Shown here piece after piece: positions 3,947-63,462 of a stretch of 64,000 nucleotides of DNA (position 1 is its first letter; each line of letters begins with the position of its first letter). The DNA is from an uncultured Parachlamydiaceae bacterium. Lineage in GTDB: Bacteria; Chlamydiota; Chlamydiia; Chlamydiales; Parachlamydiaceae. The stretch spans positions 1,088,001-1,152,000 of the forward strand of contig CAVULX010000004.1 of the NCBI GenBank assembly GCA_963742415.1. The letters are read 5' to 3'. A model generated the notes under the pieces. The model saw only the letters and a program-made list of their open reading frames with translations. It ran no database searches and was not told where the DNA came from. Position numbers and translations under genes: made by a program.

Positions 3947-6900
3947 ATGAGCCTCATGAAAATGCAATTTTCAAATCACTTGTTTTGTAAGCTTGGGTTA
4001 ATTGTCGCTTCCTATGCCCTGAGCCATACATACCTACCGCCAATAGATGCTAAAGAGGCCGCCTTGTCGCGCAATGCATCTAAATTAACTAACTTTTGGG
4101 CTATTGATGGTCAATCTTCTTCAACAGAATTCTTGAGCGAAAATGACCAGGAGTTTTACGATTCTTTGAATGAGTTCGATAACTCGTTCCCCCTTTCTGA
4201 ACAAAATCAAGAACCTATTATCCATTGGGATGATGACTTTGTTGAGGGAGCTCAAGAAGACTTTTCAAATCCACAGGTCCTTTTTTCTTTCGATAGCCCA
4301 GCAGAACCTGCAACAAATACCTACCCCACTGTTCAAGCCAACACATCTGAAGGGGATTTTCCCGACTCATTCAACTCATGGGCAAAACAAGAAGAGTCTC
4401 AAAACTATCCTTTCGAAATGCCCATCAGCACTTCCTCCGATGACCTCAATTCCCTTCTACTTTCTCCAAAATTAGAGGCCTTCGAAGAAAATAACACAAG
4501 CTCCTCATCAAAAGAACAGTTTCCAGAAGTATCCTACCCCCGCGCTTTGACAAATGACCCTCTTCCCCCTCCTTCAAGACAAAAAATCGCCCCTTATGAA
4601 CCAGCAGAAGAAGCCTCAGAGCCCCTAGACCTCGGTCTGTCTTCTCAGATTTATAGTCTGGAGCCTTCCCCAACGGCCAACCCCATCAAAGCTTGGATAG
4701 AAGAACCTCTCATAGCTGACCCTTTTACAGAAGAACCTTTCATCTCGCAAGAAGAGGCTCCCCCTCCCATTCAACCTCAAGTGCAAGAACCTCAAGTGCA
4801 AGAACCCCAAGTGCAAGAACCCCAAGTGCAACAACCCCAAGTGCAACAACCTCAAGAAAAAGTAGAACAAAATAATGAAGAAAAACCGACAAAAGAACAA
4901 CTTCCTAAGGCTGCATCAACAGAATCTAAGTCGATTTTGATCAATTTTAATAATGTTGGGATTATTGAATACATCCGCTTTATCAGCCGCATTTCAAACA
5001 AAAACTTCGTATTCGATGAAGCGGATCTTCAATTCAATGTAACAATTGTTTCCGAAGAACCAACGTCTATTGAAAATGTCATGGCTGCTCTCATTCAAGA
5101 ATTGCGTATCCACGACTTGATATTGACCGAACAAGGGAACAATTTGATTATCCATAAGAATCCCAAAGTCAGCAATGTATCACAAGTGATCGCTGAAGAC
5201 TTGTACGATTCCGAACCCATTAAAACTGAAATCGTAACTCAGGTTTTCCGCTTAAATACCTTGGAACCAGAAAGGGCAGCGGCCATCATCCGCCCCTTGG
5301 TTTCCGATAAAGCCCTAGTGGAAACCCTCCCGCAAACCAACCACCTCATCGTCACCGACATCTTGACTAACATCCAGCAAATCAGCAAGTTAATCAAAAG
5401 CATAGACGCCCCCAATAGTGGGTTGGTCATCGGCCAATATGTCGCCCGCACAACCGATGTTGACACTTTACTGCCGCTAGTGCAAAAAATCATGATCCCC
5501 ATTTCGCAGGATCAACCCCTATCCCTTATTCCTTATGCTCAAGCAAATAGCATTTTTATCGTTTCAACCCCTTTCCTTGTAGAACGAAGCATTTCTATCC
5601 TACAACATCTCGACCAAGAGGCCGGAAAAACAGGAATCATCAATCTTGGTCAGCCCAAGCATGAACAAGGAAAACCTGGTGCTCCAGAAATCGAAAAGTA
5701 TCTCGAGGAATTAAGAGAAGAAAAACCTAGTGGAAAATTCCCTCAATCCGCATGGGATTACGGTCCTGGCAATACAGAACAAACGGGAGGTTTTGGGACC
5801 CCCGATTGGTTGAAAAGGATGGGAGGCAATTATGTGCCTATCTTTATCCCGTTAGAAGAAACGCAAGAGCAAAAAGAAGCCCGAGAACGTGCTATCCGTG
5901 TCCCTTCCCCTACTCAGGTGGGTGTTACAGACTTTCAAGAAGCTGAAAGGCTTAGACGCAACGTACCAACGAATTACGAATACGTTCCATTACCCATACT
6001 CAGATCGAAATTTTATATCCATAAACTGCAGTATCGAAAAGGGGATGCGATTCAAACGCAACTGCAACAAATAGGGAAAAGCCTCCTAAACGTAAGAGGC
6101 AATGAAGAATTATTGAGCGTTATTGATACTGTCCAATGGCTAGAAGACGCAAAATCTCTTGTTTTCACCGGTACACCCGAATATTTGGAAAAAGTAAAAC
6201 AACTTATTGAGGAAATAGATATCCCCCTGCGTCAAGTATTCATCGAAATGTTGATTCTCACTACAACAGTAGATGATTCTTTAAACTTTTCCGTCAATTG
6301 GGGATCACGTTTTGGTGGTGGAAATCAAGCAGGTTCACAAGGATTCCTAACAGGGGCTTCTCCTTTGCAGGGAACGCTCGATACTACTGGAGTCTCAGAC
6401 CTTGGCGGCATTCGCCCGAATCCTCCCACAGCTATACCTTTCAACAACGTCCTTATTCCTAGTCCAAATACATTGGCAAAAGCTCAAGGATTCAGCTTAG
6501 GTGTCATCGGACAAAACATCGTTCACAAGGGTTTGGGGCTGCAATTTAATTCCATTGGGGCACTCGTTAAAGCGATACATACAAGAAATGAATCTCGTAT
6601 TGTAATGACCCCCAAAATCATTACCGAGGATAATGTCCCTGCCTATATTTTTGTTGGGATCAATACCCCCTTCCAGACGCAATCGATTGCCAATGACCGT
6701 GGAAGTGTTATTACTAACAACTTTGACTACCGAGACGTCGGAACAAGCCTTCAAGTCACCCCCCATTTAGTCAATTCCGATGTCGTGACTTTAGATATTG
6801 TGCAAGAAGTCAGCTCGATTTCAACAGTGACAACTTCCTCACAAAATTCAAATCAACCAATTGCTCCTACAACAAACAAAAATACAACAAAAACCACTGT

Positions 6901-7258
6901 CCTCATCCCCGACGGCTATTTTGTTATCATTAGCGGCATGATGCAAGACGAAACCATCCGCAACAGGATCCAAGTTCCTTGCTTGGGTTGCATTCCTCTT
7001 GCCGGCTCAGCATTTAGCGATAAGGAAACACAAGATAATAAGAGAAATTTGATGATTTTCATCAGACCGCAAATTATTGATACAGATGAAGAATATCAAA
7101 ATGCTACACGGCATCAACAAGACATTTGGAAATTCAGAGATGAAACACCAAAAATATGGGTTCAGGAAACCGAGCAGGCTTTGGATTTCTTGAATGTCCG
7201 TCGTAGTATCAATACCGATGATGAAGACAACATCCCATGCGATCAATTCGCACACTAG
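3947..7258 (+). CDS. sctC: Secretin, chlamydial CdsC/SctC-like, with long acidic Pro-rich N-terminal extension
   Basis: INFNNVGIIEYIRFISRISNKNFVFDE, KFYIHKLQY, QVFIEMLIL, DVGTSLQVTP and NLMIFIRPQII resemble chlamydial CdsC and secretin domains; N-terminal signal-like segment. Confidence 0.8.
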   Translation: MSLMKMQFSNHLFCKLGLIVASYALSHTYLPPIDAKEAALSRNASKLTNFWAIDGQSSSTEFLSENDQEFYDSLNEFDNSFPLSEQNQEPIIHWDDDFVEGAQEDFSNPQVLFSFDSPAEPATNTYPTVQANTSEGDFPDSFNSWAKQEESQNYPFEMPISTSSDDLNSLLLSPKLEAFEENNTSSSSKEQFPEVSYPRALTNDPLPPPSRQKIAPYEPAEEASEPLDLGLSSQIYSLEPSPTANPIKAWIEEPLIADPFTEEPFISQEEAPPPIQPQVQEPQVQEPQVQEPQVQQPQVQQPQEKVEQNNEEKPTKEQLPKAASTESKSILINFNNVGIIEYIRFISRISNKNFVFDEADLQFNVTIVSEEPTSIENVMAALIQELRIHDLILTEQGNNLIIHKNPKVSNVSQVIAEDLYDSEPIKTEIVTQVFRLNTLEPERAAAIIRPLVSDKALVETLPQTNHLIVTDILTNIQQISKLIKSIDAPNSGLVIGQYVARTTDVDTLLPLVQKIMIPISQDQPLSLIPYAQANSIFIVSTPFLVERSISILQHLDQEAGKTGIINLGQPKHEQGKPGAPEIEKYLEELREEKPSGKFPQSAWDYGPGNTEQTGGFGTPDWLKRMGGNYVPIFIPLEETQEQKEARERAIRVPSPTQVGVTDFQEAERLRRNVPTNYEYVPLPILRSKFYIHKLQYRKGDAIQTQLQQIGKSLLNVRGNEELLSVIDTVQWLEDAKSLVFTGTPEYLEKVKQLIEEIDIPLRQVFIEMLILTTTVDDSLNFSVNWGSRFGGGNQAGSQGFLTGASPLQGTLDTTGVSDLGGIRPNPPTAIPFNNVLIPSPNTLAKAQGFSLGVIGQNIVHKGLGLQFNSIGALVKAIHTRNESRIVMTPKIITEDNVPAYIFVGINTPFQTQSIANDRGSVITNNFDYRDVGTSLQVTPHLVNSDVVTLDIVQEVSSISTVTTSSQNSNQPIAPTTNKNTTKTTVLIPDGYFVIISGMMQDETIRNRIQVPCLGCIPLAGSAFSDKETQDNKRNLMIFIRPQIIDTDEEYQNATRHQQDIWKFRDETPKIWVQETEQALDFLNVRRSINTDDEDNIPCDQFAH
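4775..4858 (+). repeat. Intragenic 15-bp tandem repeat: PQVQE x3, PQVQQ x2, plus a partial unit
   Basis: ccYcaagtgcaaSaa units read directly from the sequence. Confidence 0.95.
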
Positions 7259-8298: not shown

Positions 8299-8450
8299 AA
8301 CAGGATAAGCAAGATCGTAAACGGCAGGATAAGCAGGATAAAAGAAAAAACGATGTTTTCGAACAGTCTTAACTTAATCATATCTGCATTTCCTTAATCT
8401 TTATTCAATATCCTGCTTATCCTGCCGTTTACGATCATGCTTATTCTGTT
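8299..8450. repeat. Palindromic element family B, copy 1
   Basis: ~42-bp IR aacaggataagcaagatcgtaaacggcaggataagcaggata / tatcctgcttatcctgccgtttacgatcatgcttattctgtt around a ~68-bp spacer; homologs at 17006-17570 and 63059-63209. Confidence 0.9.
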
Positions 8451-8478
8451 TCTTCTCTGTGCATAGCTACTTAGGAGG

Positions 8479-8503
8479 CAGTGATCTCACTGGCTCTGTG
8501 GTT
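8479..8503. repeat. Family C right arm (solo)
   Basis: cagtgatctcactggctctgtggtt is identical to 17573-17597. Confidence 0.85.
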
Positions 8504-15832: not shown

Positions 15833-16954
15833 ATGGAAAAATTAAAATGTCTTTTCTTCGCTTTTATCCTTTGCTTCCCTGAGATATTCTTCGCTTCTGA
15901 AAGTGCTCCTTATACTTTAATCGACATGGGAACATTAGAAACAGACGGAAGCATCGCAAAATCCCTTAACAATGATGGGAATGTGGCAGGGAAATTTTTT
16001 ATTAATAAACAAGCCTCCGATTTCATCTGGAATAAGAAAACAGGATTGCAAGTCATAGCTGAAAACAGCAATAAAAATATGCTTCCGCAGATCAACGACA
16101 GTGGCCAGGTTGCTTGTATTGCCTACGATCCTAATGCTTCCTTCTGGTCAACTTGTACCGATTGCGTTTTCTTATATGATCCTAAAGATGGACTAAAAAA
16201 GCTGGGCGAACCAAATAATTTCATCAATCGTTTTTCAACCTGGAACCGACGAGATGATATTAACATTGTTGGGATGGACAATCGGGGATTGATTCTTTTT
16301 GCAAACAATAAAGATATGTTCAAATCAACGAAATTTGCCATATGGAGCAATAAAGATTTGATTTCATTGACCAACCGTGAGTTTATTACCTTATATCATA
16401 CCGCTTTGGGTCGAAATATGCAGGAGGACGCCTATTTTGTCGCGTTCAATAACAATTTGGATTTTTTAGTCACCAAACATGATACGTTCATCTTACCTTG
16501 TTTAAGAACAAATCTTTTGCAAGTTCTTAATTTACAGACAAAAAAAGATTTCCTGCTTCCTGAAGGAAAATCCTATTTCGGTGTAGGAATTAATGATAAG
16601 CAACAAGTCATTGGAAGGCACAAGAAAAAGAAAGAGGGTGCTTTTTGGCCTTCCAAAACAGAATTGGTAATATTAGATCACTTTATTCCGGTAGCCCTGA
16701 ATAATCATGGGGATATTGTAGGAAAGATAATAGATCCTCAAAATAAGAATAAGCATACAGTTTCCCTTCGAAAAGCAGATGGAACCGTGATCGATTTAAA
16801 CAGCGCAATCAATTCCGATGCTGTTACCAATTTTGAAAGCCTTGTGGATGTAACGGGAATCAATGATGAAGGCCAAATCATCGTCATAGCCAAAGTTTCC
16901 GGCAAAGAGCATGTCCTCTTCTTGGACCCTGTAGCAAGCCAAAATCAACAATAA
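15833..16954 (+). CDS. Secreted HAF-type extracellular repeat (beta-propeller-like) protein
   Basis: Signal peptide, YTLIDMGTL, and repeated (I/L)N(N/D)xGxVxG units. Confidence 0.75.
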   Translation: MEKLKCLFFAFILCFPEIFFASESAPYTLIDMGTLETDGSIAKSLNNDGNVAGKFFINKQASDFIWNKKTGLQVIAENSNKNMLPQINDSGQVACIAYDPNASFWSTCTDCVFLYDPKDGLKKLGEPNNFINRFSTWNRRDDINIVGMDNRGLILFANNKDMFKSTKFAIWSNKDLISLTNREFITLYHTALGRNMQEDAYFVAFNNNLDFLVTKHDTFILPCLRTNLLQVLNLQTKKDFLLPEGKSYFGVGINDKQQVIGRHKKKKEGAFWPSKTELVILDHFIPVALNNHGDIVGKIIDPQNKNKHTVSLRKADGTVIDLNSAINSDAVTNFESLVDVTGINDEGQIIVIAKVSGKEHVLFLDPVASQNQQ

Positions 16955-16979
16955 CAGGATAAATTTTAAATTAATATTT

Positions 16980-17596
16980 ACCATATAGGCAGTGAGATCG
17001 CTGAGTTAGGAACAGGATAGGCAGGATCGTAAACGGCAGGATAAACAGGATGTTAATAGGTCGATGCTGAATTAACCAGGATTTCCGCTTAACATCTGCC
17101 TATAGAGGCATTTTAAACCTAAAAAAATTTGCAAGGAAGTGACTCTTTCACTATCAAAAGCTTGCAAATTTTAACCGGAAACCTGTACTCCGTAATTATG
17201 TCGTCCTTACAGGACTCCCTTTTTTTTGCATTTTACCCAGGCCTTCGCTTCGCTACGACCTGGGCTATAACATTTCGGCCTTTCAGGCCGTTTTCAGCGC
17301 CGAAGGCGCGGAATATCATAGCCCAGGTCGTAGCGAAGCGAAGGCCTGGGCTATAACATTTCGGCCTTTCAGGCCGTTTTCAGCGCCGAAGGCGCGGAAT
17401 ATCATAGCCCAGGTCGTAGCGAAGCGAAGGCCTGGGTAAAATGCAAAAAAAAGGGAGTCCTGTAAGGACGACATAAAATTCTTTTTTTGTAGATATAGAT
17501 GTTAAATCAGCATCGACTAATAACATCCTTTTTATCCTGTCGTTTACGATCCTGCCTATCCTATTCCTAACTCAGTGATCTCACTGGCTCTGTGGT
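16980..17596. mobile_element. Nested palindromic composite C[B[E[D+A]]] between convergent genes
   Basis: C arms 16980-17005/17571-17596, B arms 17006-17056/17521-17570, E arms 17057-17104/17490-17518, D 17101-17190, A 17196-17476; non-autonomous and mobility is inferred only. Confidence 0.75.
17196..17476. repeat. Family A copy 2 with an internal 86-bp tandem duplication
   Basis: Perfect 73-bp arms 17196-17268/17404-17476; unit 17259-17344 is repeated at 17345-17430. Confidence 0.97.
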
Positions 17597-17619
17597 TAGT
17601 AAAAAAATCTAAAAATGAG

Positions 17620-18201
17620 TCATACCAAATCGCAAGCCTCTTCCGGCATCCAATGGTTGTCTTTTCCTTCCCATTTAACATTACAACCAATAGGATTCGT
17701 CAATGGGGTTCTAACGGGTTTTCCCGCCAGATGATCCTGTAGGGCATTTTCCAAGTCATTAACCTTCATTTTAGTTGTATCGCGGGGACTATCCACTCCA
17801 CGCCCTGTGTAGATCAACTTACGATCTTCGTCAAAAACATAAAAATGGGGGGTTCTCAAAGCTCCAAATCGCTTGGCTACTTCTTGGGTTTCATCGTGGA
17901 GATAGAGCCAAGGGAAATGGTGCCGTTTCATCCTCTCTTTCATGTGTTTAAAAGAGTCCTCCGGAACGGTTGTTTCACTATTGGAATTGATTCCTACAAA
18001 AACCACCCCTTTATCTTTAAACTTTTCCACAGTCTTTCGGGTCACTTCGTCCGAACCTATTACATAAGGGCAATGGTTGCAGGTAAAAAAAATCACGAGA
18101 ACAGGCGCCTGGGCAAAATCTTTTAATGCATACGTTTTTCCGTCCGTTGCCGGTAAAGAAAAATTGGGTGCTTTAGACCCCAATGAAAGAGTAAATGGCA
18201 T
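17620..18201 (-). CDS. Thioredoxin-fold AhpC/TSA family protein
   Basis: [24 protein letters not shown] and PIGCNVKW motifs. Confidence 0.9.
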
Positions 18202-20308: not shown

Positions 20309-20481
20309 ATCAGTTTTTTGGAGTGCGGCGGCTTGCCGCGCTTTGACAAGCATCGCCTTGGCGATGCTTCAAGGCAGAGGCAAAGTGTTACCTATGTGGT
20401 TGGGTTAAAGTGTTACCTATGTCCCTGGGGTCGGACCGCCTAACAAAGCGGCGGCAAGCCGCCGCACTCCAAAAAACTGAT
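20309..20481. repeat. Family F REP-like doublet with cargo
   Basis: Arms atcagttttttggagtgcggcggcttgccgcgctttg (20309-20345) / caaagcggcggcaagccgccgcactccaaaaaactgat (20444-20481); internal hairpin 20348-20369 and a 16-bp direct repeat. Confidence 0.9.
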
Positions 20482-28640: not shown

Positions 28641-28666
28641 GGCAAGCCGCCGCACTCCAAAAAACT
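28641..28666. repeat. Family F solo arm
   Basis: ggcaagccgccgcactccaaaaaact is identical to part of 20444-20481. Confidence 0.85.
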
Positions 28667-28733: not shown

Positions 28734-28824
28734 TTAACGCAGAGCCGGGGAGTCGGGGAGACGCAGAGATAAGTCATTTTCTCGATTATCTCTGCGTCTC
28801 CCCGACTCCCCGGCTCTGCGTTAA
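28734..28824. repeat. Family G perfect palindrome (39-bp arms, 13-nt loop)
   Basis: ttaacgcagagccggggagtcggggagacgcagagataa and its exact reverse complement at 28786-28824. Confidence 0.95.
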
Positions 28825-38202: not shown

Positions 38203-38254
38203 AAAGGATTAGGGACACTAGCGACATTGGAGAAACTAAGAACGCCAAGGGCGT

Positions 38255-38273
38255 CAAGCCGCCGCACTCCAAA
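38255..38273. repeat. Family F solo arm between convergent murJ and rpsD
   Basis: caagccgccgcactccaaa preceded by ggcgt, as at 56836-56860. Confidence 0.8.
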
Positions 38274-38304
38274 TGGAGCCTGAGGCCCTTGGTGGCCTTT
38301 TTGC

Positions 38305-42310: not shown

Positions 42311-42746
42311 ACCACAGAGTGAGATCACTGAGAAAATACGAGAAATTGAGTAAAAAGGGTTTGTAGCCCGATGTTGATTAACATCTCTACCTATTAAAAT
42401 AAAATTGTATGCCGTCCTTACAGGACTCTGTTTTATTTGCATTTTACCCAGGCCTCGCTTCGCTCAACCTGGGCTATAACATTTCGGCCTTTCAGGCCGT
42501 TTTCAGCGCCGAAGGCGCGGAATATCAAAGCCCAGGTTGAGCGAAGCGAGGCCTGGGTAAAATGCAAATAAAACAGAGTCCTGTAAGGACGGCATACAAT
42601 TTTATTTTTATAGATAGAAATGTTAAATCAGCGCCGACCCTATCTTTACCAAAATTATTCCATACCCTCCATTCCCCTTATTCCTCCTCAATTCCAAATT
42701 TCTCACTGATCTCAAACTTCCTCAGTAATCTCAGTATCTCTGTGGT
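42311..42746. mobile_element. Nested palindromic composite C[E[A]] between convergent genes
   Basis: C arms 42311-42332/42721-42746, E arms 42368-42394/42610-42638, inner A copy 3; mobility is inferred only. Confidence 0.72.
42396..42608. repeat. Family A copy 3
   Basis: Perfect 80-bp arms 42396-42475/42529-42608. Confidence 0.97.
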
Positions 42747-42790
42747 GAAAATTCGGGCAACACATAAATTAGGAGGAGCACGAGCAAACA

Positions 42791-45378: not shown

Positions 45379-48300
45379 TCAAACAGCCGTTTCTTCTGAT
45401 TCAAAACCTGTTTGCGATTCTATAAACTGTTGCAATTCGTCAGGCAATTTGGAGGCATTTTTGCTTTTTAGATACTCATGAATTTGAGCTACAACTTGCG
45501 TAAAATAAGTCGGAACAGCAAAGCTAGGATCCTCCTCCTCCATGCCTCCCAGGGACTCCCAAATAAGCTCCAGAAACTTTCGGTAATTGGTTCGGTGATC
45601 TTTTGAAGCTACATCTTGTTCGTTTTTCCACTTAGTTTTATTTCCCGATAAATCCTCTTCATTTGGAACTGTTTCAAAATATCCAAATTCGACCCCTTTA
45701 TTTATCATAGCTGTCTTTAAATCTTTTCTTTTTTTATCAAGGGTCATTTTCAAATTAGCTTGGGCAAGTTTTTCCTGAAGGCTGTTTATCTCTTTCAATA
45801 ATCCATCTTTCTCTAAATCAGCCTTGTTTCTATTATTTTGTTTTTTTTGTATTGTTTTCTTTAAGTCCATGATCTTCTTTGCCGTTACTTCTATTTCTTT
45901 TTTAAGAGAAGACTCTCCTTTTTTTCGCCATTCTCGAAATAAAGCCTCCTTATAAACGTCTGATAAGTAGCTATTTATAAGCTCTTTCCCCTCTTTTAAT
46001 AGGCTCTCTCCCAGAGCATCAGCGTTCAGATTTTTATTATTCCTTAATGCGCATAATTGATCGGTTAATTTCTGCATTTGTTGATCAAAACTTATAAAAC
46101 GCTCCTTCTCTTTCGAATCAAAGTCGAACCTTTGTTCTCTGAAAAATTTCATTTCGAACTGCATCTGCCACAAAAGCGCATGTAAGTTGTCCTTTTCAAA
46201 ATTGTATAAAGGTGATGATTGCAATTTCTTTTCCAACTCCGCTAATTTCCTATTTTTCTCATTTTCTTCTGAAGTTATCGATAGCGCAATATCTCGCTGA
46301 ACTTGATTAATGTGAACATTCAAAGAATAGATTCGCAGTTCTTTTTTTGATTTATTTAATTTTTCTTTGACTGAGCTATGCTCTTCTTTTTGCAGCCCGC
46401 TTTTCTCTTCTATCGGATCGATTTTCTCTTCTTGGCTTTCCCCTCTTTTTTCTACTAGTTGTTTAAATTTTTCTTCAAATTCACGAAGGAAAACCGTTGA
46501 CAACTTGTTTATTTTTTGCGGTTTTCTTTCACATGTCTTTTCATTTTCTTCTCGTTCAATAGCTTCTTTTCGAGCAGTAAATAATCCATTCTTTGCCAAA
46601 ACATTTGCTATTGTTTTGACTTTATCATTCTTCTGCTCTACGGTGCCATCCACTACGGATTTTTTTACATTTATAGACTTATTAAGTTCATTCTCAAGAG
46701 CTTTTCGCTTTCTTTTCCAATCTTCTTCTACCTGATAGGTTACATATAATTTTGACCCTTGTACGTATACTTCTATTGAACTTTTTAATGCTCTTTTCAT
46801 ACTGTCGAGAACTGAAATAAATGAGCCATCAGCATGATCATTAAAAGTCTCAAAGGGTTTGCGCTCTTTTAGAGCCTGCCAATCCTTTAAGGATTCGACG
46901 AAGTCTTGTGAGTCTTTTTCTTGCTGAAGTGTTGACGGAGCCAATTGTGAGTATAAAGAAACTATTTGTATTTCTGAAAGCTTGGATATATTTTCGAACA
47001 ATTGCTTATTCAACTTATTAATATTTTGCTGAGATTTGCAAATTTCTTGATATTGCCTTTTTTGATATTGAAATAGACTACTTTTTCTGGCTTCTTCCTT
47101 TACTGTTTCAATAGATTGATTAATTTTTTGCCTGATTTCTTCATCTTCAATATTAAAAGTAAAGTTTTTAAAATTCAGCTCTAGTTTTTCTAACTGTTGC
47201 TGACAGTCTGCTAAATCTTGAATGGACTGTGGAAGATCAGATTCAATTTTTGCATTTTCATTCAATTCTATCTGATGTTTTTTTAGTCGCTCTTCAAACC
47301 CATACATTTTTTCGCATAACTCAGGGATTTTTTTAAAAAACTTCTTAATCCTTTTATAGCCATTTTTTTCGTTAAAATAAGGATCTGGTATTTCTATAAA
47401 GGGTATCTTTCGATTTATGTATTGACGTAGGAATGCAATCAAAAGAAAAGCCCTATCCCGAGGTATTAAATATTCATCCAGAGTTTTTAGGGCTTCTAAT
47501 CCGCTGCTCAACAATGCTGGTTTCAATTTTTTAACATCTTCAAACAAATTCTCTTTCTGAGAACAAATTAAATCATCATTATATTCAACAGTTTTATCAT
47601 TATATTCAACAAATTGATCCTTATATTCAACAGTTTTATCATTATATTCAACAAATTGATCCTTATATTCAACAGTTTTATCATTATATTCAACAGATTT
47701 ATCCCTTGCCCCAACATACTTTTTTAGCAGAGGCTCCCATTGAGCCCCTTTGGTCTCGATTTTCTCAATTTTTTTATTTAAAATTTGAATTAGAATAGGA
47801 ATCGAACTCAAATCCAAATTTGCTAGTTCCTCTTCTGCCTTTTCTAGAAACGAGCTGTATTTGTCCAATTTGTTTTTCTGGCTTACGGTTTCTTCCAAAT
47901 CAATCGAAATTCCCGTTGTTTTGGCTCTTTCTAAAACCAGATCCAACAGAGATTTTATAAAATCAGTTTCTTTCTTTTTGTTTTCTAATTTCTTCTTTTC
48001 TTTTATTAATTTACTTTTATTCAATTCTGCTTCATCTAATTGCTTCATATAGACTGATTGAGATTTTTTCATCCATTCGTCCGTTAGAGGTTTTTGAATT
48101 TCAGCCCAAAATATTTTTATATTGGCCAAACAAACTTCAATTTTTTGATCAAGATCAGCTATATTTTTATCTATGCTTTTGAGATCTGGTAATTTAGCAT
48201 GTAAGAAAATAATCAAATATTCAAATACTTTTTTTACATCTCTAGCTTTTGATAATTTTCCTTTAAAAAAACCTCTTATTTCTTTCTTGAGTTCTGTTTC

Positions 48301-49377
48301 ATCGTTACAACTTCGAAAGATCTCTTCTTTCAATGCGGTTTTAATTCCCTCAAGTTCTTCGAGCTTTTTTGAATCTATTTTTTCAACAGGTTTGATTGTT
48401 GGAAGAAATGCCATCCAAGGTTTTCTTGTTGGGGTTGGGGTTGGGGTTGGGGTTGTCTTAACTTCTTCTTGTTTTATAACTTTTCTATCTATTTTTGCTT
48501 CTATATGGTTTAATCTCGCTTCTTTTTTATCTGCTTGAGCGGCCTTTTCCTGGAATGTTCTTTTTATTACTTTCAATTTTTCCTTTTGAGCTTCTCTGAG
48601 GAGGTTTTCAAGATCTTGGATTTTGTCTTTAAGGCTTAGCTCACTCTTTGCTTGTGCTTCGCAATTTATTTTGAGATCTTCTAGCTCTTTCTCGACTTGT
48701 TGATGTTTCTGTTTAGAAGATTCAAGCAGTTGGTCTTTTTCTGTTAATTTTGCATTCAGTTTATCTTCAGCTTCATTGATTTTTCTTTTATAGCCCTGCA
48801 CAATCTGGGCTTGTTCCGTATATTTTCTTTGAAGTTCTTCCAACTTTTCTTTAATAGCTAGAAGTTCATCTGCTTGCTTTGTTTGTTCGCTGCTTTCGAG
48901 CTCTTCGTCTTCTTCTGTTTCTAGATTCCTCTCTTTTTCTGGTTCAAAATACCTGTCTTTTATGTCATTAAGTTTTATTGCTGTGTCTCGGTAATCAATT
49001 GCATTAATTAAGCTCTCTTTTCTTAACTCTATCTCTTTTGTAGAAGATGAAATTCCAATTAAAGATAAAAAATAATGAACCAATGAATGAATATACCCTT
49101 TCTTTTCAGATGAGATAGCCTTGATACGAGTTTTAATTTTTTGTAAATCATTACCCGAAGCTTCTTCTTCTAGGTCACGAACCATCTCTTGGATACGTTG
49201 AAACACAACAGCCAAATCACTTGTCGTTCCATTTCGATAATGGGTCCAACAACTAGATTTTTTGGGGCCTTCGCATGCTACTTTCCCGCTGCTTTTTTTG
49301 GAAGCAATCAGCCTTTCTGAAGGAGGGCTTTCAGCTAAAGTTTGCAAATTTAAAAAAATATTATTATCTGTATTCAT
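45379..49377 (-). CDS. Large Lys/Glu-rich coiled-coil protein (1332 aa), candidate type III effector
   Basis: AT-rich, heptad-rich, no Sec signal; internal (TP)n and 7-aa tandem repeats. Confidence 0.7.
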   Translation of the reverse strand: MNTDNNIFLNLQTLAESPPSERLIASKKSSGKVACEGPKKSSCWTHYRNGTTSDLAVVFQRIQEMVRDLEEEASGNDLQKIKTRIKAISSEKKGYIHSLVHYFLSLIGISSSTKEIELRKESLINAIDYRDTAIKLNDIKDRYFEPEKERNLETEEDEELESSEQTKQADELLAIKEKLEELQRKYTEQAQIVQGYKRKINEAEDKLNAKLTEKDQLLESSKQKHQQVEKELEDLKINCEAQAKSELSLKDKIQDLENLLREAQKEKLKVIKRTFQEKAAQADKKEARLNHIEAKIDRKVIKQEEVKTTPTPTPTPTRKPWMAFLPTIKPVEKIDSKKLEELEGIKTALKEEIFRSCNDETELKKEIRGFFKGKLSKARDVKKVFEYLIIFLHAKLPDLKSIDKNIADLDQKIEVCLANIKIFWAEIQKPLTDEWMKKSQSVYMKQLDEAELNKSKLIKEKKKLENKKKETDFIKSLLDLVLERAKTTGISIDLEETVSQKNKLDKYSSFLEKAEEELANLDLSSIPILIQILNKKIEKIETKGAQWEPLLKKYVGARDKSVEYNDKTVEYKDQFVEYNDKTVEYKDQFVEYNDKTVEYNDDLICSQKENLFEDVKKLKPALLSSGLEALKTLDEYLIPRDRAFLLIAFLRQYINRKIPFIEIPDPYFNEKNGYKRIKKFFKKIPELCEKMYGFEERLKKHQIELNENAKIESDLPQSIQDLADCQQQLEKLELNFKNFTFNIEDEEIRQKINQSIETVKEEARKSSLFQYQKRQYQEICKSQQNINKLNKQLFENISKLSEIQIVSLYSQLAPSTLQQEKDSQDFVESLKDWQALKERKPFETFNDHADGSFISVLDSMKRALKSSIEVYVQGSKLYVTYQVEEDWKRKRKALENELNKSINVKKSVVDGTVEQKNDKVKTIANVLAKNGLFTARKEAIEREENEKTCERKPQKINKLSTVFLREFEEKFKQLVEKRGESQEEKIDPIEEKSGLQKEEHSSVKEKLNKSKKELRIYSLNVHINQVQRDIALSITSEENEKNRKLAELEKKLQSSPLYNFEKDNLHALLWQMQFEMKFFREQRFDFDSKEKERFISFDQQMQKLTDQLCALRNNKNLNADALGESLLKEGKELINSYLSDVYKEALFREWRKKGESSLKKEIEVTAKKIMDLKKTIQKKQNNRNKADLEKDGLLKEINSLQEKLAQANLKMTLDKKRKDLKTAMINKGVEFGYFETVPNEEDLSGNKTKWKNEQDVASKDHRTNYRKFLELIWESLGGMEEEDPSFAVPTYFTQVVAQIHEYLKSKNASKLPDELQQFIESQTGFESEETAV
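47575..47700 (-). repeat. Intragenic 21-bp tandem repeat x6 with 42-bp higher-order period
   Basis: Encodes DKSVEYN-DKTVEYK-DQFVEYN-DKTVEYK-DQFVEYN-DKTVEYN. Confidence 0.95.
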
Positions 49378-50902: not shown

Positions 50903-50906
50903 AATT

Positions 50907-51158
50907 ATGCTGCATATGATTAAAAAAGTTGAATACATAGAAGGATACAAACTAAGACTCTTTTTCAATGATTTAAAAATTAAAATTATTGATTTTGAAG
51001 AAAGGCTTAGAGAAGCAAAAAATATGTTTCTTCCTCTAAAAAATATTGATTATTTCAAAAAAGTCAAAGCCGATGGCACAACACTGGTTTGGCCAAACGG
51101 CTTGGATCTTTGCCCTGATACTTTGTACGCAATCGGCAAAGAAGAAATCATAAAATAA
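50907..51158 (+). CDS. DUF2442-family protein
   Basis: KVEYIEGYKLRLFFND...FKKVKADGTTLVWPNGLDLCPDTLY; true start is ATG 50907, not 50757. Confidence 0.85.
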   Translation: MLHMIKKVEYIEGYKLRLFFNDLKIKIIDFEERLREAKNMFLPLKNIDYFKKVKADGTTLVWPNGLDLCPDTLYAIGKEEIIK

Positions 51159-51370
51159 AATTTATGTCGTCCTTACAGGACTCCATTTTTTTGCATTTTG
51201 CAACCAGGCCTTCGCTTCGCTCGACCTGGGCTATGATATTACGCGCTTTCAGCGCTAAAAAAAAGGCCTGAAAGGCCGAAAATGTTACAGCCCAGGTCGA
51301 GCGAAGCGAAGGCCTGGTTGCAAAATGCAAAAAAATGGAGTCCTGTAAGGACGACATAAATTTTATTTTA
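51151..51370. repeat. Family A copy 4 (loop in the opposite orientation to copies 1-3)
   Basis: Perfect 82-bp arms 51151-51232/51289-51370. Confidence 0.97.
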
Positions 51371-56806: not shown

Positions 56807-56860
56807 TTTTTGGAGTGCGGCGGCTTGATGCGTAGGCGTCAAGCCGCCGCACTCCAAAAA
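56807..56860. repeat. Family F hairpin without cargo, between convergent genes; possible bidirectional terminator
   Basis: tttttggagtgcggcggcttgatgcgtaggcgtcaagccgccgcactccaaaaa. Confidence 0.9.
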
Positions 56861-56875
56861 AAGACAAAATGACCT

Positions 56876-56940: not shown

Positions 56941-57573
56941 TTATTGAGCACAGTTGTTGCAATCAGGTTGACAAACATGTTTCCAGTAATAACGGGGAAC
57001 ATATTCACACTGTTGATCGCAAACCCACTTTTTGCAAGTTTTGCACTCGTCAACATCATAATATTCAGGTACTTTGCAGCAGCATGTTTCACAATAATAT
57101 TGAGGAACATATCTGCAACGTTGTACTTGATATTCTTTGTCAACATATCTGCAACATCTTCTTTTGCAAGGTATTTGCTCTTCTACACAACGTTTGGTTG
57201 TATAGTAGCAGGGCTCATAATGGCAATACATGCACCAACAATCATTGCAAGGTTGGTCATCACAGGGATGATCTGCTGGACAACCCCCTTGACCTCCAAA
57301 AGTATTTTGCCCATCGCCCCCTTGCCCGCCACGCCAATTTTGATATTGACCTCTACGCCAATTTGGATCCTGCGTTTGGCCATCTTGCCCGCCACGCCAA
57401 TTTTGATATTGTCCTCCATGCCAATTTGGATCCTGCGTTTGACCATCTTGCATTCTTGCTTGTTCTTGACCAGCATTTTGCATTGGCTGAACTGCAGAAC
57501 GATCTTGCGCATGGCTTAATTGGGTAACGAGAAGACCACAAAGGACTGCGCCTATCTGGAACAATTTTTTCAT
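56941..57573 (-). CDS. Secreted cysteine-rich protein, candidate envelope (COMC-like) component
   Basis: AAAGGAG RBS, signal peptide (SHA-QD), Gln/Gly-rich repeats, 23 Cys in the last ~114 aa. Confidence 0.8.
   Translation of the reverse strand: MKKLFQIGAVLCGLLVTQLSHAQDRSAVQPMQNAGQEQARMQDGQTQDPNWHGGQYQNWRGGQDGQTQDPNWRRGQYQNWRGGQGGDGQNTFGGQGGCPADHPCDDQPCNDCWCMYCHYEPCYYTTKRCVEEQIPCKRRCCRYVDKEYQVQRCRYVPQYYCETCCCKVPEYYDVDECKTCKKWVCDQQCEYVPRYYWKHVCQPDCNNCAQ
57321..57451 (-). repeat. Intragenic 63-bp tandem duplication (QDGQTQDPNWxxGQYQNWRGG x2)
   Basis: 57321-57383 versus 57384-57446, near-identical. Confidence 0.93.
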
Positions 57574-63058: not shown

Positions 63059-63209
63059 AACAGGTAAGCATGATCGTAAACGGCAGGATAAGCAGGATAT
63101 TGAATAAAAAGGTTCAGGATGTGGGAATATAATTAAGTTTAAACGATTTAAAAAAAAATTTTTGTTTTATCCTGCCCATCCTGCCGTTTACAATCATTCT
63201 TATCCTGTT
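63059..63209. repeat. Family B copy 3, degenerate; a family C right arm follows at 63322-63343
   Basis: caggtaagcatgatcgtaaacggcaggataagcaggata / tatcctgcccatcctgccgtttacaatcattcttatcctgtt; tgatctcactgcctcggtggtt downstream. Confidence 0.85.
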
Positions 63210-63462
63210 GAAAAAAGTTGAGATGATGCGAAGGAATTGCGTTGCTCCTTAAAAAGATTCGTTAGTTAGTTTTAAAATTCCATTCTTACTTCTTCTTCTC
63301 CATGATCTCATGCTATCTCATTGATCTCACTGCCTCGGTGGTTAATCTGTGGTTAAATTGCGCAAATGTCGAGGGCTGCACATCAAATTTTCTTCTTCCC
63401 TCTTTCATCGACATAATTTACTATGGCAACAAAAAGCATCTAATTATTAGGAGCTCTTTGCT

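Follow-up and report, generated by a model that had tools for sequence, protein, structure and literature searches.

The 665-bp gap between two convergent genes of an uncultured Parachlamydiaceae bacterium is occupied by four concentric palindromic layers, C[B[E[A]]], of which B and C are doublets without a gene, made of arms like those on either side of GxxExxY nuclease genes from two different clades. We consider it probable that this nest is a pile-up of four independent non-autonomous elements, produced by insertion between arms, perfected by template switching and, in the case of composites, copied whole. The nest lies in a window of 64,000 nucleotides (the whole stretch of DNA that was analysed), and arm profiles were searched throughout the assembly to which the window belongs (G000; 2.69 Mb, 84% complete). 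Positions outside the window are given by contig (C3 or C4).

Structure of the nest and related loci in the window

The gap (16955-17619) is delimited by an ORF on the plus strand (15833-16954), which encodes a 373-residue protein without a Pfam family, and an ORF on the minus strand (17620-18201), which encodes a peroxiredoxin of the Redoxin/AhpC-TSA family. The nest extends from 16980 to 17598 and folds as one hairpin (z -37.6), with a predicted ssDNA energy of -245.1 kcal/mol against a mean of -73.8 (sd 4.6) for shuffled sequences, none of the 20 shuffles equalling it. Left and right arms are identical in 22/26 positions for C, 38/41 for B, 14/15 for the terminal repeat of E and 69/69 for A. 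Arm identities and fold therefore bear out the concentric inverted repeats that a preliminary description had seen filling this gap. That description counted five nested families; C, B, E and A hold as layers, whereas D, which follows the 15-nt left end of E in a fixed arrangement, is the asymmetric interior of E, so that the layers are four.

The outermost layer consists of the C left arm (16980-17005, plus strand), a GxxExxY-type arm of the C clade with tandem 8-9-nt words that also brackets GxxExxY genes at loci L447 and L449, and the C right arm (17571-17598, minus strand). A 5-nt spacer between C and B (17006-17010) is mirrored at 17566-17570 with 5/5 complementarity. The B left arm (17011-17051, plus strand), a GxxExxY-type arm of the B clade, is paired with the B right arm (17525-17565, minus strand), and B arms flank a GxxExxY gene at locus L002. 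Between B and E, a spacer that represents half of the short AT-rich B interior (17052-17059) is mirrored at 17518-17524 with 6/8 complementarity, and a TA adjoins each E end in these spacers. Layer E comprises a left terminal inverted repeat (17060-17074, plus strand), an interior (17075-17196, plus strand) that includes D as a profile match at 17117-17182, and a right arm (17476-17517, minus strand) made of the terminal repeat (17503-17517) and an extension. The left part of E together with D matches free copies at C3:435285 (131/137) and C4:1299530 (121/139). Innermost are the A left arm (17197-17265, plus strand) and right arm (17407-17475, minus strand), whose outer hairpins at 17203-17215 and 17457-17469 are terminator-like on the plus and minus strand, respectively. 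The A core (17263-17434, strand undefined) contains two exact 86-nt tandem units (86/86), each with one minus-strand match to Acido-Lenti-1 (17296-17350 and 17382-17436).

The same layers were found in five other loci of the window, in the combinations previously reported for them. A C[E[A]] composite (42311-42748) shows a symmetrised E without D and a C extension common to C[B] loci such as C4:1320710. Two B doublets are each accompanied by a single inward-facing C arm, corresponding to the C right arm described earlier: one at 8299-8502, with the common 70-nt interior, and one at 63060-63344. An E[D A] composite located at C4:1087611 is truncated by the window start, so that its right part alone is seen, at 1-205, and an A doublet without a full E layer is found at 51163-51358; the latter may keep a decayed E right arm, to judge from a weak alignment (31/50 columns). 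A short ORF-like stretch of less than 100 amino acids (50906-51153) lies immediately upstream of this doublet.

Additional repeats of the window include family F (20311-20479, 28641-28666, 38250-38278 and 56807-56863), which usually surrounds another hairpin family, H, and family G (28734-28824), which resembles GxxExxY-type arms. Furthermore, tandem coding repeats are found at 47533-47721 (21 nt), 4773-4862 (15 nt) and 57316-57441 (63 nt), within ORFs 45379-49377, 3947-7258 and 56941-57573, respectively.

Enzyme genes bracketed by the arms

As stated in the preliminary description, the window encodes no mobilising enzyme: the only Y1 match and the only GxxExxY match of the genome both lie outside it. 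That description suggested looking for Y1/HUH transposases (RAYT, IS200 TnpA) or other nucleases flanked by the arms. For A, profile searches of the genome located the predicted Y1/HUH partner, a TnpA gene flanked by A arms; for B and C the enzymes are PD-(D/E)XK nucleases of the GxxExxY family and not of RAYT or IS200 type.

The sole PF13366 match of the assembly (C4:902297) is flanked by B arms. Its product scores 129.8 against TIGR04256 (cut-off 35) and 130 against PF13366 (cut-off 22), and E40, D79, K91 and Q103 are invariant, and E89 near-invariant, in 108 close homologues, the nearest named ones being Parachlamydiaceae and Waddliaceae records. The predicted model (pLDDT 87) adopts a PD-(D/E)XK restriction-like fold. 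A sequence search for solved structures gave no informative match; the best structural match was the Cas4-like SSO0001 (E 6e-5; Z 8.5, rmsd 3.6, 101 aligned residues), among many restriction-fold proteins. We took 111 GxxExxY loci, 101 of which had enough flank, and 72 of these 101 carry inverted arms compared with 1 of 186 shifted controls. Among 49 partly redundant loci, GxxExxY genes with a C arm at either end were seen in G030 and G203, and genes with a C arm at one end in another three genomes. In a tree of 102 rows, all 52 B-armed proteins fall in one branch of 57 rows (98/93), and 24 of 25 C-type proteins in a branch of 29 rows (100/99). The arm labels of this tree follow our own patterns and the B set comes from a query-centred search; since kin share arm labels, the tree gives a clustering of arm word with clade rather than proof of co-evolution.

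At C4:902238-903298 (L002:1440-2500), the GxxExxY gene is followed by three tandem copies of 205 nt, each with both B arms and an internally deleted gene of 88 nt, and a fourth, dispersed gene-deletion derivative with B arms is located at C4:715846. The tandem derivatives are a snapshot of non-autonomous elements forming. The commonest B interior (46/77) is one family that matches no GxxExxY gene DNA, and the B arms at the gene are of another variant than the common one. A C-clade GxxExxY gene was not detected in the 84%-complete assembly. At C3:198618, C3:834264 and C4:1297816, copies of family Q adjoin or overlap pieces from the 3' end of a C-type GxxExxY gene, with 90-92% identity over 21-25 amino acids at two of these loci; these pieces are remnants of a gene that the assembly lacks.

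Near-identical GxxExxY genes, 16-18 per genome, were found in G132 (L128-L144) and G110 (L145-L147), riding in a larger repeated element that looks like one of the IS5/IS903 group and carries a second ORF in opposite orientation. These copies were rejected as proof of self-mobility, since 19 of 20 share 420 nt upstream, containing the start of another ORF, and a common end; the GxxExxY genes are passengers there.

The sole PF01797 match of the assembly (C4:1304441; L001) is flanked by A arms. The protein contains HVH and YISNQKEHH, corresponding to the HuH motif and the Y---Q--HH signature, the latter described for TnpA-Y1 subclass 1.2 (Quentin et al. 2018, PMC6006769). It is present in single copy and scores 54.2 bits against the IS200/IS605 model NF033573 (cut-off 55), and 21.4 against the RAYT model NF047646, below the cut-off of 80. 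Layer A is a doublet of the arms found around this subclass-1.2-like Y1/HUH TnpA. Among 31 Y1 loci, 16 show the signature and 12 of those 16 have inverted arms scoring at least 61, a count made without a control set and with 8 loci giving no alignment; arms of A, J and K flank some of the signature-bearing genes. Families K and J of G000 flank other subclass-1.2-like TnpA genes in relatives (L244, L245, L251 and L254), which suggests that several Y1-linked families coexist in G000 without their genes. In the window, the A core matches Acido-Lenti-1 of Rfam (RF01687) with 43.6, 43.6 and 39.6 bits, above the gathering score of 37.

Layer E has short terminal inverted repeats (14/15 nt) and no coding capacity, TA precedes 23 of 39 E ends, and a minimal E palindrome is present in G113. 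From these features, E with its D interior looks like a TA-flanked MITE. At the nest, a TA stands on each side of E within a B loop of ~12 nt, which fits ordinary MITE insertion, and the two may represent a TA duplication. The assembly, 84% complete, holds no IS630-type DDE_3 transposase (PF13358), no E-bounded gene was found among 21 non-self loci, and in other genomes the search for an E enzyme gave single pattern matches at control level. The preliminary description had taken all layers for ssDNA-hairpin elements; the MITE-like TA flanks of E mean that not every layer need be of that kind. Asymmetric E[D,A] and symmetrised E[A] coexist in the genome, free E[D,A] units occur elsewhere in it, and the 17 E[A] loci seem to go back to one or two events, multiplied by repeated copying.

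Distribution, nesting order and origin

The genome-wide search gave full-length arms of B (151), A (65), C (49), F (26), G (23), E (19) and D (17) in 194 loci, of which only the four-layer nest carries all of A-E. With ten further palindrome families the catalogue of G000 reaches 293 loci: B is present in 92 (58 alone), C in 46 (15 alone), A in 35 (9 alone) and E in 30. Two-armed loci (72 B, 31 A, 17 C and 11 G) are hairpin-forming, extragenic and dispersed. According to our own ORF calls, repeats occur in 108/305 convergent, 142/1109 tandem and 37/337 divergent gaps. The independence earlier ascribed to the families holds for C, B and A, with their solo loci and separate cognate genes, but not for D.

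Some catalogued loci show other arrangements. A cores are amplified to 5 or 6 tandem 86-nt units inside symmetric E arms at C3:243916 and C4:172847. Family I is an element of ~140 nt with short terminal repeats after TA (43/48 ends) that carries a tail-to-tail pair of CACAGAG arms; it is found at C3:517073, C4:1248367 and ~27 more loci, and one copy sits within a B interior with an AT word duplicated. Five more low-copy palindrome families are represented at C4:547303, C3:61426, C3:196151, C4:1326670 and C4:122063, and some of their ends resemble what we take to be Rickettsia RPE or ERIC elements. At C4:41397-41917, B arms surround an unrelated AT-rich stretch of 439 nt that includes a gene-like fragment, and 4.5 kb away (C4:45924) there is a 57-nt derivative whose ends are identical, so B arms can carry foreign DNA. 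In G003, G210 (L356, L364) and G213 (L341), B arms are mostly tail-to-tail instead of head-to-head and look like the joint of a right and a left end.

Enclosures with both outer arms detected are C[B] (12), C[A] (2), B[E[A]] (1), E[A] (17), B[F] (4), C[F] (2), F[H] (9), G[B] (2), B[G] (1) and G[A] (1); the reversed orders B[C], A[E], E[B] and E[C] were not found in G000. Where C and B occur in one locus, the C arms, 29 in number, are without exception directed towards B, in agreement with the proposal that inner elements lie between the arms of outer ones. Inward word-arms enclose 14 of the 72 B doublets, and outward-facing word-arms within 130 nt occur at 0 of 72. By eye, C+B loci fall into ~12 junction classes, ~7 of them among fully enclosed loci. 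C and B share 21 gaps, compared with 3.4 expected under an orientation-matched null and 14.3 under an occupied-gaps null; the modest excess over the latter indicates that their co-location partly reflects few tolerant sites.

The nesting hierarchy is not a law. The order C outside B outside E outside A, regarded previously as fixed, is never reversed in this genome, but other layers reverse within G000, where B[G] at C4:328004 stands against G[B] (one event, two copies), and between genomes. A pair of CACAGAG-/CGCAAAG-type arms, words that are relatives of C and not strict C, is enclosed by B in 7/19 doublets of G004 (20 regions fetched for 72 arms) and 1/6 of G192 (30 of 93 matches fetched), and encloses B in 2/15 doublets of G185 (30 of 105 matches fetched). 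At C4:540435, E probably encloses G (right arm 32/39, left arm partial), which would make the order circular, E>G>B>E, and at two loci the A core is interrupted by a foreign fragment. B arms are present in 24 of 73 family genomes, with 0 to >100 arms each, and C arms in 24 of 401 class genomes (controls 0 in both cases). Strict C[B] recurs once in another family (G230), and B[strict C] was absent from the loci examined in G000 and its relatives. An age gradient behind the order was rejected, mean pairwise distances being 0.104 for C, 0.117 for B, 0.079 for E and 0.116 for A.

Insertion between arms is indicated by G004 and G185, each of which has both empty and filled B doublets, with the inner element where the loop would be, and one B unit with an exact end was found in many different symmetric flanks. 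Symmetry extends beyond the B arms in 30 of 72 loci, compared with 6% of cross-locus pairs, and some insertions carry direct duplications. Partner arms of B are closer to each other (0.043) than the average (0.117) in 72/72 loci; the nearest arm at another locus is closer still (0.025), which implies that units are copied whole and that homogenisation is episodic. Continuous homogenisation at every locus was not supported, in a test that did not include E and A. Correction of inverted repeats by template switching is an established process (PMC5941160).

No empty orthologous site was found for the nest, as 40 relatives include no same-genus genome. Arms downstream of the peroxiredoxin gene were seen in 0/14 relatives, but 0/14 keep the upstream gene; among metagenome loci with enough flank, 0/72 have the upstream gene and 2/72 an arm match, and the best metagenome match reaches 77% protein identity. 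In a congener test for B, one of three loci was informative: the gap measures 393 nt with a B pair in G213, ~125-150 nt in G113 and G212, and is short in G214 (70-75% identity, breakpoints not mappable), which suggests an empty site for B at this locus. No empty C with a junction word equal to that of a C[B] locus was found. The idea that the nest is the scar of a rearrangement parting the peroxiredoxin gene from its frequent neighbour was dismissed, with no repeat within 2.5 kb of the neighbour gene.

In the course of events that we propose, A would have entered E once, and the E[A] composite would then have multiplied. One copy would have inserted at TA into the small, AT-rich loop of a B doublet, which itself lies at the top of a C stem, and the A core would have duplicated in tandem. 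Most new elements that arrive or persist would be those between existing arms, where a gap of convergent genes tolerates them; template switching between paired arms would copy one side onto the other with loss of the unpaired remainder, leaving loop-less concentric stems, and composites would be copied whole. Copying would probably start with a nick that each enzyme makes in its cognate arms when the DNA is single-stranded or cruciform, a putative step by which GxxExxY or TnpA would mobilise the arms. Layer order would record the insertion and amplification history of the genome, with no built-in rank. This pile-up draws on the cognate genes, arm controls, clade clustering and deletion derivatives with B arms, and on the enclosure counts, exact B ends, extended symmetry, coexisting E[D,A] and E[A], empty and filled B doublets and order reversals. 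We count against it the lack of an empty orthologous site and of a matching empty C, the passenger GxxExxY genes, the unmatched B interior, the absence of a C-clade gene and of DDE_3 from the assembly, the occupied-gaps null and the episodic arm copying; that strict C never lies inside B is something a pure history would explain only by chance. Some of the same observations could come from active loop targeting, the mechanism of the preliminary description but without fixed rank, in which nucleases would recognise extruded hairpins, cleave them where stem and loop meet and exchange the loop for an incoming element in one step. Junction spacers that are near-equal and complementary (42/42, 30/30, 24/24, 38/38, 5/6, 4/4 and 10/10), filled B copies in G004 without the 25-30-nt loop of the empty ones and the lack of outward-facing word-arms at B doublets all speak for such a swap. 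Asymmetric intermediates (19/38, 56/17, 38/2 and E[D,A] with ~125/28) speak against it, as do insertions with direct duplications or at TA-rich words, like those of ordinary MITEs, and the lack of a matching empty junction for C[B]; we consider it rather unlikely, though a serious rival. A wider claim, which we offer as possible but doubtful, is that GxxExxY proteins are structure- and word-specific nucleases driving an undescribed form of mobility, with a cut at the stem top of extruded hairpins and replacement of the loop by another palindromic element. If true, arms of different GxxExxY clades, HUH-associated repeats and MITEs would assemble themselves into nested replicators that hitch-hike on one another, with C arms as a class whose intrinsic role is that of an outer wrapper for arbitrary DNA.

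The repeats might also have no dedicated mobility at present, having spread long ago or by host recombination, with nests built by gene conversion across the shared 30-70-nt arms and kept by selection for stable RNA hairpins that act as terminators or processing sites between convergent genes. The higher occupancy of convergent than of divergent gaps agrees with this, the outer hairpin of A, terminator-like on both strands, may explain why such repeats are retained between convergent genes, one-sided C+B loci have the look of recombinants, and exchange through shared arms would keep pairwise order. The terminator scan, however, gave consensus matches only (2 compared with a shuffle mean of 0.9), and exact B ends in many unrelated flanks, the patchy expansion of B among genera and the catalytic residues kept by the GxxExxY gene make an account without mobility quite improbable. 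A single fixed composite that decays by deletion, the case named earlier as one that would refute independent families, holds for D within E and largely for E[A]; it is contradicted by the full nest at 1 of 194 loci and by B, C and A, which have their own genes and solo copies here and in other genomes. Misassembly is a risk with long palindromes, but the outer-arm mismatches (22/26 and 38/41) are not expected of a fold-back, and we give fixed composite and artefact together very little credence. The pile-up of independent elements is our preferred explanation.

Comparison with known systems

The best functional analogue that we can propose for GxxExxY and its arms is Ssn/NTS, in which hairpin repeats flank a small single-domain nuclease gene and have further copies scattered over the genome (Chenal et al. 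2025, PMC11893778). Ssn is a GIY-YIG enzyme with ssDNA cleavage shown, whereas GxxExxY is a PD-(D/E)XK protein known here from sequence and model, and the available part of that article describes no nesting (PMC11893778). The two GIY-YIG matches of G000 are not at catalogued repeat loci; the flanked genes are PD-(D/E)XK and HUH. In the literature searched, mostly open-access texts without supplements, we found no description of a GxxExxY-arm partnership, of PDDEXK-linked repeats or of multi-family concentric nests in chlamydiae. The present results connect specific dispersed repeats with the GxxExxY family, which is widespread but uncharacterised, and with TnpA subclass 1.2, on which little work exists, and each enzyme gains a named candidate substrate.

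E is similar to TA-targeting MITEs such as Correia and RUP, of the IS630/Tc1 type, in its short terminal repeats mostly preceded by TA, with the difference that no cognate DDE_3 was found. The A cores recall E. coli BIMEs in their tandem arrays of up to six units, but BIMEs are linear alternations and not concentric nests. Subclass 1.2 TnpA genes are reported mostly from Cyanobacteria and Bacteroidetes and generally lack typical IS200 terminal structures, according to the available part of the survey (PMC6006769); the TnpA of G000 agrees with them in signature and low copy number, and differs in its long inverted arms, dispersed as family A. Acido-Lenti-1 appears in an earlier list as an RNA without known function (Weinberg et al. 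2010, PMC2864571); the A core passes its gathering score within a repeat of transposase-flanking DNA, which suggests that this Rfam family is part of such a DNA repeat.

REP dimers at the centre of longer palindromes have been described in Anabaena, Thermomicrobium and Halothiobacillus (Di Nocera et al. 2013, PMC3733652). As far as the available text of that study goes, those structures have two layers only, with no enzyme assigned to the outer palindrome and no chlamydial family (PMC3733652). REPINs within or beside other REPINs have also been published (Bertels and Rainey 2011, PMC3116915), and further material for comparison is found in PMC3184786 and bioRxiv 10.64898/2026.10.21.760802. These REPIN-in-REPIN and REP-in-palindrome cases, together with the unfixed hierarchy and the inferred movement, bound the significance of the nest. 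The spread of REP-like hairpins is a long-open question, and empty, asymmetric and symmetric nests in one genome record its steps, so that loop targeting and later symmetrisation become distinguishable. The families described here share with the REPIN/RAYT system (PMC3116915, PMC3337134) the inverted-pair hairpins dispersed extragenically and a single-copy enzyme gene flanked by repeats. They differ from it in that B and C go with PD-(D/E)XK nucleases, the enzyme of A scores far below the RAYT cut-off, and nesting is concentric, with up to four layers, across unrelated enzyme classes. The nest works like REPIN-type doublets and is not a member of the REPIN/RAYT system.
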